In this document: one piece after another, positions 28,017 to 29,508 of the stretch
How the letters are laid out: each line of letters starts with the position of its first letter
Numbering within the stretch: position 1 is the first letter of the stretch
Source of the DNA: Candidatus Nealsonbacteria bacterium
GTDB taxonomy: Bacteria; Patescibacteriota; Minisyncoccia; Minisyncoccales; RBG-13-42-11
Reading direction: 5' to 3'
NCBI GenBank assembly: GCA_026396115.1
Contig: JAPLXL010000007.1
Location: 6,565 to 70,564, forward strand
Length of the DNA stretch: 64,000 nucleotides
Made by a program: the position numbers and the translations under genes
The notes under the pieces: generated by a model
Seen by the model: the letters and a program-made list of their open reading frames with translations, nothing else
Told to the model about the DNA's origin: nothing
Database searches by the model: none

Positions 28017-28628
28017 CTATTTCGCAAACCTACATATTAAATCATACTGCTCAAACTCAAAATTTACTTCGCCACGGTTCCCGATACTGTTGAAATAAGA
28101 ACCAATCAACTTATTTTCCTTTGGTAAATATTTTAGTTTGACAGTACCTTTGTGCGCTTCCATTGTACCGGCTCTCAACGAATTTGGCTCATTGTCGTAG
28201 GTATAAAACAGATAGCTATCACCATTCACCTCTGCGAAGTTTGCCACTGCACTTTCTGATTGAGAGCGTTGATAGTAGGCACGCACAAAGATTTTGGAAA
28301 AGGTTTGCGAAATTTCTAAATACGATGGAACCTTAACATTATTCCCATTTTCTTTGTATGAGGATTGTTGAACGCCTTTCCATCTACCGCGAAGATCAGG
28401 AAAAATTACAATTCCCAAAAGCTGGAAAGCCTTCAGTCGCCAAAAGTATTTTTCAAATAAGGAATAAAGTAATCCGTAGGCAACGATGGGCGAAAGCGTT
28501 TCAATCCAAAATGGCGGACTTGGCAATAGTTTGAAAAATGTCCAAGAAAACAAAATGCTTAAAAACGGCAAAAATCCGGCGAAAAATACAATATGAGTAA
28601 ATTTGCTAAAATCAATTTTCATAACCAA
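28017..28628 (-). CDS. CBASS-type effector candidate: two N-terminal TM helices plus a beta-rich C-terminal domain (S-2TM-beta / Cap15-like)
   Basis: TM1 HIVFFAGFLPFLSILFSWTFF and TM2 LSPIVAYGLLYSLF. Then DLRGRWKGVQQS... and alternating beta-like segments ending GSYFNSIGNRGEVNFEF. Overlaps the upstream nucleotidyltransferase by 17 nt. Confidence 0.6.
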   Translation of the reverse strand: MVMKIDFSKFTHIVFFAGFLPFLSILFSWTFFKLLPSPPFWIETLSPIVAYGLLYSLFEKYFWRLKAFQLLGIVIFPDLRGRWKGVQQSSYKENGNNVKVPSYLEISQTFSKIFVRAYYQRSQSESAVANFAEVNGDSYLFYTYDNEPNSLRAGTMEAHKGTVKLKYLPKENKLIGSYFNSIGNRGEVNFEFEQYDLICRFAK

Positions 28629-29508
28629 TAAAATCCCAAGCGTATTGCATAAAAGAGCGCGCCTGCTGATGTGTTATATTTTGATTACCCCTAAACAACC
28701 ATTTTAGATCGCTAACCTCCGCATAGTTGTTAGCTTTCTCCAACTCACCCATCTCATTGCAAACCGTAGCGACAACGGCTCGCGTTGCCTCCGCATAAGT
28801 ATTTTTTTGAAAGTGAGTATTCGGTAGCACATTCCAAGCCAAGCATTCCAAAAAGAAAGATGGCATTGTTTCTGGGGCGATTGTATTTTGGTCTATTAAT
28901 TCATTCCGAACATTTTTGAGTATGCGAACGACCGATTTATACATTCGACTGGTGCTATCGTTTTTACTAACGCCGTTGTCGTAGTGTTGCTCCGGAAAAC
29001 TATAAATATGGATACCGGCGTCTGTAACAAACTCAATGCCCTCAGTTTCAACCAAAGAAGGCGTTTTGAATCTTTTATGCACAAAACAAGGAACAATGTC
29101 AGCATTTACTCTTTGCGAGCTACCTTTTACCATTATACATTTATTCTTTCGCTCAATAGCAGTGGTACCGAACTTATTTATCAAGATACTCTGAATGTCA
29201 TTTTTGAACTGAGGAAAGGTATATGTCGAAGCATTAAAATCTGCCCAATATTGTTGTTTGTCTACTTCTGACATTCCGTTTACATCTGAAAAATAGTAAT
29301 CATCATGTCGAACTACAATATCAACATCGCTATCAAGCTTGACGTTGGTTCTGTTTTTATAGGATCCTTGTAGAAAAATAGAAACACTGTCGCCAAATTT
29401 TGCACGAATAGCATCCGTAATCTGGCTAACGGCATTCTGACATTTTCCTTCCTCTGTTTCGCTCGGGGGCTTTGCCCAACGAGCTAATTGTTCCTCGGTC
29501 ACATTCAT
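28612..29508 (-). CDS. SMODS / cGAS-DncV-like nucleotidyltransferase (CD-NTase) candidate
   Basis: Pol-beta NTase signature LQGSYKNRTNVKLDSDVDIVV (GS...DxD), third acidic residue in RVNADIVPCF, and an N-terminal WAKPPSETEEGK segment typical of SMODS proteins. Confidence 0.7.
   Translation of the reverse strand: MNVTEEQLARWAKPPSETEEGKCQNAVSQITDAIRAKFGDSVSIFLQGSYKNRTNVKLDSDVDIVVRHDDYYFSDVNGMSEVDKQQYWADFNASTYTFPQFKNDIQSILINKFGTTAIERKNKCIMVKGSSQRVNADIVPCFVHKRFKTPSLVETEGIEFVTDAGIHIYSFPEQHYDNGVSKNDSTSRMYKSVVRILKNVRNELIDQNTIAPETMPSFFLECLAWNVLPNTHFQKNTYAEATRAVVATVCNEMGELEKANNYAEVSDLKWLFRGNQNITHQQARSFMQYAWDFIGYEN

Follow-up and report, generated by a model that had tools for sequence, protein, structure and literature searches.

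Two overlapping genes on the minus strand of a Candidatus Nealsonbacteria contig (JAPLXL010000007.1, assembly GCA_026396115.1) raise the question of whether they form an anti-phage signaling system based on cyclic oligonucleotides (CBASS), and of what their position beside a yjzC gene and a lexA gene means. The DNA analyzed was a stretch of 64,000 nt (positions 6,565 to 70,564 of the contig), hereafter the window, and its own numbering is used throughout. An earlier note on this DNA had read two open reading frames (ORFs) as a minimal two-gene CBASS-like abortive-infection module; both were present on the minus strand, at 28612–29508 (298 aa) and 28017–28628 (203 aa from a TTG start). Our analysis makes it highly probable that the pair is a type I CBASS made up of a CdnE cyclase and a Cap15 effector, that it would act by the mechanism inferred from its homologs, and that the cassette was acquired horizontally by Candidatus Nealsonbacteria.

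The upstream gene, cdnE (28612–29508, minus strand, 298 aa from an ATG start), encodes a clade-E CD-NTase (cGAS/DncV-like nucleotidyltransferase). The protein matched the PADLOC profile Cyclase PDLC00801 end to end (2.8e-98) and Pfam SMODS at 8.6e-9. Its best match among Protein Data Bank (PDB) sequences by phmmer was the Elizabethkingia meningoseptica enzyme Em-CdnE (6E0M, E = 7.5e-88, residues 1–297), followed by ClCdnE (6e-58), LpCdnE, EfCdnE and Rm-CdnE, all of which are clade-E CD-NTases. The AlphaFold2 (AF2) model, with a predicted local distance difference test (pLDDT) of 90.4, displayed the bilobed CdnE fold with a C-terminal helical lobe (Pfam CD_NTase_C is present in homologs), and its top 12 Foldseek matches were all CdnE enzymes with template-modeling (TM) scores of 0.79–0.92, including 6E0M (E = 1.4e-28) and ClCdnE (TM score 0.91). 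The GS, DxD and third-Asp motifs quoted in the earlier note were located at G48-S49, D61/D63 and D137; these residues align with the catalytic residues of Em-CdnE and are invariant in a 31-sequence family alignment. The cyclase also matched NCBIfam NF053871, 'DS2_2 anti-phage nucleotidyltransferase', with 220 bits (E = 3.6e-65), below the equivalog cut-off of 350 bits; by this score it is related to that equivalog family yet outside its membership. Public records name the cyclase 'nucleotidyltransferase' and Cap15 'hypothetical protein'.

Em-CdnE is the closest solved structure to the window cyclase (47% identity in the Foldseek structural alignment), and its structures 6E0M/N/O reportedly come from Whiteley et al. 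2019. The two enzymes have the same catalytic residues and the same lid-1 Ser but differ in the lid-3 segment, which is S-P-R in Em-CdnE and Q-N-I in the window cyclase. In an alignment with the CdnE enzymes of the PDB, lid 1 carries Ser170, and the (R/Q)xW position is occupied by Q276-N-I278, which has no Trp. Published lid rules hold that a lid-1 Asn reads uracil and that (R/Q)xW at the C terminus limits the donor site to pyrimidines, and Em-CdnE, with Ser at lid 1 and an open donor pocket, gives di-purine products (PMC10442399). Because lid 1 of the window cyclase carries Ser170 in place of the Asn that reads uracil, and the pyrimidine motif lacks its Trp, its product is predicted to be a purine-containing cyclic dinucleotide, as for Em-CdnE (cyclic GMP-AMP [cGAMP], c-di-AMP or c-di-GMP). 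The Cap15-linked operons of ClCdnE, EfCdnE and LpCdnE likewise combine a type I CdnE with Cap15, and the fold of these cyclases is close to that of the window enzyme (TM score 0.85–0.91); they carry the lid-1 Asn and (R/Q)xW and make cyclic di-UMP (PMC10442399), whereas the window cyclase has Ser170 and no Trp.

The downstream gene, cap15 (28017–28622, minus strand), encodes 201 aa from the ATG at 28622, which is where public annotation of the identical contig, as of every relative, begins the effector; the alternative TTG at 28628 gives 203 aa. The protein matched PADLOC Effector 2TM PDLC00703 at 1e-59 over residues 14–200 and Pfam Cap15_CD_rec at 8e-21 (75 bits, cut-off 31). Among PDB sequences it matched YaCap15 of Yersinia aleksiciae (7N34, E = 8.9e-6), described as the only solved Cap15, whose structures 7N34/7N35 are said to be those of Duncan-Lowey et al. 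2021. In the AF2 model (pLDDT 89), two N-terminal helices (residues 8–32 and 45–58) preceded eight beta-strands within residues 79–192, and the barrel matched 7N34 in Foldseek with E = 3.5e-7, a TM score (target) of 0.83 and a root-mean-square deviation of 2.3 Å. Two transmembrane helices and a beta-barrel are thus common to YaCap15 and the window effector, with only 20–23% identity across the aligned barrel. Taken together, the profiles and the model identify the effector as a predicted Cap15 (S-2TM-beta) protein with two N-terminal transmembrane helices and a C-terminal eight-stranded beta-barrel, and by analogy the barrel should bind a cyclic dinucleotide as its receptor. The earlier note had assigned the CD-NTase and S-2TM-beta/Cap15 identities and the architecture of two helices and a beta-rich domain, and had proposed profile searches and AlphaFold models as checks; both proteins matched the profiles of their own class, both models were confident and had the CdnE and Cap15 folds, and a barrel was modeled in the second protein, where the note had allowed that none might exist.

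Among the relatives collected for comparison (loci prefixed L), those of the Em-CdnE subclade (L010–L044, including L033, the locus of Em-CdnE itself) have cyclases 46–60% identical to the window CdnE, and most are without Cap15 downstream. The downstream gene there encodes a transmembrane protein of ~155–185 aa without a Pfam match (e.g., L013 6899–7381 and L026 6880–7347), with hydrophobic segments near residues 55–70 and 135. These proteins may be an undescribed membrane effector family.

Both genes of the window pair are intact, lie on one strand and adjoin with an overlap of 11 nt, through which they are predicted to be translationally coupled; the 17-nt overlap given earlier holds from the TTG start but not from the publicly called ATG. 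The overlapping cyclase-Cap15 pair recurs in the nine closest loci (L001–L009, of which L001 is the contig studied here and L005 and L007 are repeats of L004) and, among the distant loci examined (L045–L085), in the majority. Pfam and PADLOC searches of the neighboring ORFs found no Cap2/Cap3 (E1/E2, JAB), HORMA/TRIP13 or Cap6-8 style accessory genes, the neighbors being YjzC, LexA, a type II restriction-modification (RM) pair, an unannotated 148-aa ORF and an ABC-F protein. Since no accessory genes lie near cdnE-cap15, the system is classed as type I, in agreement with the earlier claim. Both genes evolve under purifying selection, because the ratio of nonsynonymous to synonymous substitution rates (dN/dS) against three relatives was 0.06–0.13 for the cyclase and 0.08–0.11 for the effector.

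The same two-gene, accessory-free layout is found in the type I-B CBASS of Staphylococcus schleiferi (Ssc-CdnE03 plus Cap15; Banh et al. 2023, PMC10686824), and the presumed logic, from infection through cyclase activation and a cyclic dinucleotide to membrane disruption, would be shared. In S. schleiferi, CdnE03 binds a structured phage RNA (cabRNA, a bacteriophage RNA that activates CBASS) and makes cGAMP, and Cap15 kills by membrane damage; structured phage RNA is the cue of both CdnE03 and CdnE01, with cabRNA shown for staphylococcal enzymes, and phage protection by abortive infection is known for homologous CdnE-Cap15 operons (PMC10686824). The window cyclase differs in that it belongs to a different CdnE subcluster, in a host of another phylum, and the cabRNA trigger and cGAMP product are established only for the staphylococcal enzymes. 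Ligand-induced oligomerization and membrane disruption are known for YaCap15 and other Cap15 proteins (PMC10442399). By analogy with these systems, a phage cue would switch on the idle cyclase, and the activated CdnE would synthesize a cyclic dinucleotide; the nucleotide would bind the Cap15 barrel, Cap15 would oligomerize and disrupt the cell membrane, and the infected cell would die ahead of phage release.

Several points weigh against this reading of the locus. What triggers the system, what it makes and how it kills are in each case carried over by analogy from homologs 23–58% identical. The product call is uncertain, and a mixed purine-pyrimidine product is possible because Gln276 and Glu264 resemble the Glu-Gln pair that narrows the donor pocket of LpCdnE. 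The Pfam Cap15_TM match of the effector was weak (E = 0.089), and no Shine-Dalgarno sequence was evident upstream of the cyclase. Abortive infection would, moreover, have to work in a population of the candidate phyla radiation (CPR) that is episymbiotic and possibly non-clonal.

The exact CdnE and Cap15 proteins are deposited from a Candidatus Nealsonbacteria metagenome-assembled genome (MAG) of the CPR, on a contig of 86.7 kb, and Nealsonbacteria are placed in the Parcubacteria/Patescibacteria group. When one genome per species was scanned, 547 of them proved to have a relative, and CPR lineages (Azam-, Berkel-, Morani-, Paceibacterota, Adler-, Saccharibacteria and others) accounted for 22 of the 39 best species-level genome matches. 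The earlier note had singled out the reduced genome of the putative host for attention; because so many of the best family matches come from CPR lineages, a CBASS of this cyclase's family in a reduced CPR genome is not exceptional. A literature search found no paper on CBASS in Patescibacteria.

The transferable cassette spans 1.57 kb (27975–29546, minus strand), from 38 nt before the cyclase ATG to 42 nt beyond the Cap15 stop. By blastn it was 89.9% identical at the DNA level to a Parcubacteria MAG (L002), and the flanks were not alignable. Between the same two genomes, CdnE and Cap15 were each 91% identical at the protein level, RpoD 72%, DnaG 54% and LexA 27%. Because the cassette is ~90% identical in DNA while the core proteins are only 54–72% identical, the comparison indicates horizontal transfer, and the acquisition by the Nealsonbacteria host appears recent. 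Viral contigs yielded only six cyclase relatives, all distant (31–43% identity), and there is thus no evidence of a phage vehicle. The pair had been described as markedly GC-richer than the genome, which did not hold: it is only mildly so, with 38.8% GC compared to 34.9% for the window, ~1 sd above the ORF mean (34.5, sd 3.7). One in eight windows of the same size (12.5%) equals or exceeds it, and uvrA and rpoD stand at 38.9% and 38.3%.

The region 3' of cap15 (27600–27977, minus strand) is non-coding and contains GTGTCTCATTT inverted repeats, in four copies of alternating orientation within 77 nt (27886–27962), a 23-nt direct repeat (at 27715 and 27803) and a terminator-like hairpin (27600–27612); the repeat-rich block reported earlier is real but modest. 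The GTGTCTCATTT copies can fold into alternative hairpins, and 35 nt of this stretch recur at L002 15673–15707. Fragments of the region are also present at further intergenic sites of L002, and conservation of the block alongside CBASS stops at the nearest relatives. A search for tandem repeats gave no notable array. Next to it, a truncated GC-rich element (27978–28010, minus strand) represents the first ~35–40 nt of a hairpin-forming intergenic element of ~150 nt with a 13-bp perfect hairpin, GGGCGCGGCGGAA...TTCCGCCGCGCCC. Copies of this element occur at L086 60–270 and 6305–6460, at L092 1720–1880 and 8325–8480, and at L002 11415–11560, and the stretches matching the truncated one are L086 231–259 and 6317–6350, L092 1835–1868 and 8335–8367, and L002 11427–11462. 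In L086 and L092, full copies flank the lexA island on both edges in inverted orientation, and in L002 one follows Cap15; two of the copies are just upstream of large serine recombinase genes. The element could be a recombination site, a miniature inverted-repeat transposable element or a terminator family. No second copy of the element and no further 23-nt repeat were found in the window, and neither the block nor the element matched Rfam (gathering threshold on the window; E ≤ 10 on 27500–30000). The earlier note had remarked that the block is no described CBASS component; it is not part of the CBASS and looks like dispersed intergenic repeat material, possibly marking the cassette ends.

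The genes upstream of the cassette bring in a further explanation, that the CBASS is an interchangeable cargo of a lexA/yjzC slot, co-transcribed with yjzC from a LexA-repressed promoter and raised in expression by DNA damage or by RecA activation upon phage infection. This would extend the type I CBASS assignment and does not exclude it, and we regard it as quite possible, if short of probable. The lexA gene (29968–30594, plus strand, 208 aa) is divergent from yjzC-cdnE-cap15; its product has LexA_DNA_bind and Peptidase_S24 domains and matched NCBIfam TIGR00498 with 156 bits (cut-off 111). As read from the translation, it retains the cleavage-site and catalytic residues of autocleavage (A94-G95, S129 and K168), which we take to correspond to A84-G85, S119 and K156 of E. 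coli LexA. Between lexA and the cyclase, yjzC (29619–29792, minus strand) encodes a very conserved small protein of 57 aa (Pfam YjzC, 1.5e-5) and is, as had been noted, co-oriented with the cyclase.

A total of 474 YjzC homologs were found, with identities of 65–98%. In nearly every locus with a homolog at least ~80% identical, yjzC is directly preceded by a LexA-type gene, either divergent from it or in tandem, and the cargo after yjzC is always co-oriented and starts 42–110 nt past the yjzC stop. That cargo varies: CdnE-Cap15 pairs in L104 (3208–5756) and L106 (3204–5771), whose cyclases are only 35–37% identical to the window CdnE and, in L106, accompanied by a LexA 86% identical to that of the window; a CBASS of a 1TM protein, a cyclase and an E2 in L096 (3148–6483); Shedu SduA in L103 (3205–5334); DUF2130 with an AbiU2-like protein in L098 (1248–4955); DUF2130 in L115; and genes of no named family elsewhere. 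These data suggest that the position right after lexA-yjzC is a cargo slot for differing defense systems. Among 80 species-level CdnE loci, nine have a LexA-type gene (LexA_DNA_bind plus S24) directly upstream of the cyclase, as does L002, and these loci come from CPR, Chitinophagaceae, Eisenbacteria and Nitrospiraceae. In L017, L045 and L076, from three non-CPR phyla, the gene order is LexA-DUF2188(-DUF3892)-CdnE-effector; DUF2188 and DUF3892 have been linked to defense operons with the damage-responsive regulators CapH/CapP (bioRxiv 10.1101/2022.04.27.489752). In the loci of CapW, CapH/CapP and CapK/CapS, the repressor lies upstream of and divergent from the defense operon, as lexA does here, in some of them with DUF2188/DUF3892 small genes in between. 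The candidate regulator of the window differs from these in being a canonical LexA (winged helix-turn-helix plus S24 autopeptidase), presumably RecA-dependent by analogy.

The same adjacency could, however, reflect an integration hot spot by lexA and tRNA-Asn. Directly after lexA lies a type II RM pair (30614–32974, plus strand), consisting of an N6/N4 methyltransferase (30614–32188) and a TdeIII endonuclease (32192–32974), and beyond it a tRNA-Asn (33270–33344, minus strand). The order dnaG-rpoD-tRNA-RM-lexA is common to the window and L002. In sister contigs with a >90%-identical LexA, only lexA and 53 upstream bases are shared with the window; a new RM system follows lexA each time, RmuC stands in place of the CBASS on the opposite side, and large serine recombinases lie at the edges. 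The locus looks like a variable defense island anchored on lexA, beside dnaG-rpoD-tRNA-Asn. Most CdnE-Cap15 loci are moreover without a LexA nearby, and in a recent survey the expression of defense genes in E. coli was negatively correlated with recA.

Further features were seen around this island. Between the TdeIII stop and the terminator on the tRNA-Asn side, a 265-nt non-coding stretch (32975–33240, ~44% GC) contains several hairpins and gave no Rfam match. In a sister contig (L086 8063–8247), a match to the Group I intron family (RF00028) that stays below threshold, at 43.5 bits (E = 6e-8), comes after half a tRNA-Asn, and the tRNA-Asn at that island edge may be intron-containing or disrupted. 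In seven loci, LexA_DNA_bind and Peptidase_S24 domains are fused to an N6/N4 or D12 DNA methyltransferase (MTase) in single ORFs of 515–621 aa (L093 2192–3787, L098 1248–2813, L115 1695–3239, L134 2220–3812, L006 4324–5979 and 129–1991, L019 4072–5937, and L026 4219–5973). The fusions adjoin a restriction enzyme gene (several of BglII or MamI type), a CBASS cyclase or both, and several are divergent from yjzC or the cyclase; in the window, LexA and the methyltransferase are separate genes 20 nt apart (29968–30594 and 30614–32188). No literature linking LexA with CBASS operons or with methyltransferase fusions was found.

Promoters and operators bear on LexA control in both directions. The best promoter-like site on the yjzC-cdnE-cap15 strand (TTGACT-18-TATAAT, 29954–29983, minus strand, 11/12) stands back to back with the lexA start, and no terminator-like site was found between yjzC and the cyclase. 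Against co-transcription from the yjzC side, the cyclase has a promoter-like site of its own directly upstream (TGGATA-16-TATAAT, 29611–29638, minus strand), of a kind as frequent in shuffled sequence; both sites are consensus matches only. The lexA upstream block (29915–29967, plus strand, 53 nt) is 100% conserved over 51 nt in sister contigs with differing flanks and holds GATAAC-N15-GTTATC (29946–29920) as a candidate operator, which is unusually wide and missing upstream of uvrA; no LexA box shared between the lexA and uvrA upstream regions was found. The block ends at a DnaA-box-like TGTGGATAAC. The DnaA-box-like GTTATCCACA occurs in perfect form only once in the window (29916–29925), at the edge of this block, and recurs beside lexA near L002 8995 and L019 5985.

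A conserved sequence before the cyclase (29532–29548, minus strand), TAAAAATAAATAGAAAG, containing AAATAGAAAGTC, is a degenerate version of the direct repeat TAGAAA-N5-TAGAAA, which L006 and L008 have between lexA(-MTase) and the cyclase; the window sequence is possibly a relic operator or promoter. Of 25 lexA loci, eight have the direct repeat T[AC]GAA[AT]-N5-T[AC]GAA[AT] (period 11) at a distance of 12–52 nt from the lexA start (L006 5957, L008 5965, L019 5949, L026 5951, L093 3835, L098 2834/2865, L115 3257 and L134 3833/3864). These positions hold 10 of its 29 occurrences in 2.8 Mb, a ~70-fold enrichment within 52 nt of those lexA starts, and the enrichment is limited to a LexA subfamily that excludes the window LexA, for which subfamily the repeat is a candidate operator. 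LexA control of the window CBASS is plausible by its parallel with the DNA-damage control of CBASS by CapW, CapH/CapP and CapK/CapS; it is not established, because the search for an operator of this LexA type identified none, the cyclase is preceded by a promoter-like site of its own, and a hot spot would give the same adjacency.

The yjzC gene itself is predicted to be wrapped in an undescribed conserved RNA structure. A structured leader (29813–29901, minus strand; 87-nt leader) contains three covarying hairpins, which were derived from single-sequence folds and a covariance model; most of the structure escaped RNAalifold when it was run on the raw MAFFT alignment. The covariance model, R1, scored 98.7 bits at the window yjzC. 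In 462 kb it gave 22 matches, every one of them shortly upstream of yjzC, whereas 893 kb from other loci gave none; 95.3% of its cells were paired, and six pairs had compensatory changes. The first 14 nt of the leader (29888–29901) pair with GGAGGCAGTCTTAG (29583–29596, minus strand), just past the yjzC stop, in a 14-bp helix that encloses the whole yjzC ORF. In this helix 96.4% of cells were paired, with compensatory changes at 9 of the 14 pairs, and one position was G-U in 8 of 14 sequences, which favors RNA over DNA inverted repeats. The covariation of leader and helix was seen across 14–22 loci, and the leader had no Rfam match at E ≤ 10 (27500–30000) or at the gathering threshold (whole window). 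The structure might serve as a stem for RNase III processing, as a read-through gate into the cargo or as a riboswitch-like leader.

On this basis we put forward, tentatively and as a speculation, that the lexA locus of Nealsonbacteria and other Parcubacteria/CPR bacteria may be an SOS-wired defense dock, with changing RM systems on one side, in several genomes with LexA fused to the methyltransferase, and on the other side, behind yjzC, a slot for interchangeable abortive-infection cassettes, in which the yjzC RNA could gate or process read-through into the cargo and LexA would form a fourth class of damage-responsive CBASS regulator. Apart from this speculation, the place of the cassette directly downstream of yjzC, itself divergent from lexA, makes it plausible, by inference only, that the cassette is expressed at least partly from a LexA-controlled promoter.

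YjzC could also be a third component of the CBASS, e.g., a sensor or regulator, since it is co-oriented and directly upstream and also precedes CBASS operons in L096, L104 and L106. This is very improbable and was rejected largely on the distribution of the protein. YjzC equally precedes Shedu, DUF2130 and other genes, occurs without a defense neighbor in many bacteria and had no PADLOC match; a literature search on it found nothing relevant. Because it is missing from all 80 CdnE loci and from the closest relatives L002–L009, and the DNA homology of the cassette to L002 starts downstream of yjzC, YjzC is, judged by its distribution, not a CBASS component but part of a lexA-yjzC module that precedes varied cargo; the earlier note had remarked that it is no described component.

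That the cassette has lost its activity and is decaying within a streamlined genome is very improbable: the degenerate TAGAAA repeat upstream, the truncated GC-rich element at the 3' end and the lack of an obvious ribosome-binding site for the cyclase would fit decay, whereas neither ORF is shortened, every residue that is invariant in the family is retained and dN/dS is ~0.1 against three relatives. Hardly credible is the alternative that the nucleotidyltransferase (NTase) is a kanamycin-type or minimal (KNTase/MNT-type) antitoxin or antibiotic enzyme, an identity raised in the earlier note, and its partner an unrelated membrane protein, as the generic NTP_transf_2 match (3.3e-4) and the weak matches to ANT(4') in NCBIfam (0.045) and an aminoglycoside NTase in the PDB (0.81) might suggest; it was rejected, since the CdnE matches are at least 80 orders of magnitude better and full length, including the C-terminal helical CD-NTase domain, the PADLOC, PDB-sequence and Foldseek evidence all spoke against it, and the identity of the partner as Cap15 is unambiguous.

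As a CBASS, the locus adds little. The cdnE-cap15 pair is an ordinary member of a known two-gene anti-virus system; DefenseFinder or PADLOC would call the cassette, and two-gene CdnE-Cap15 systems have already been characterized in structure and function. The lexA-yjzC setting is more unusual, and if confirmed it would matter through LexA-linked control of CBASS and other defense cargo, LexA-methyltransferase fusion proteins and a new covarying RNA structure around yjzC. For the biology of the group, the ~90%-identical cassette shows that ultra-small CPR genomes retain and exchange abortive-infection systems.

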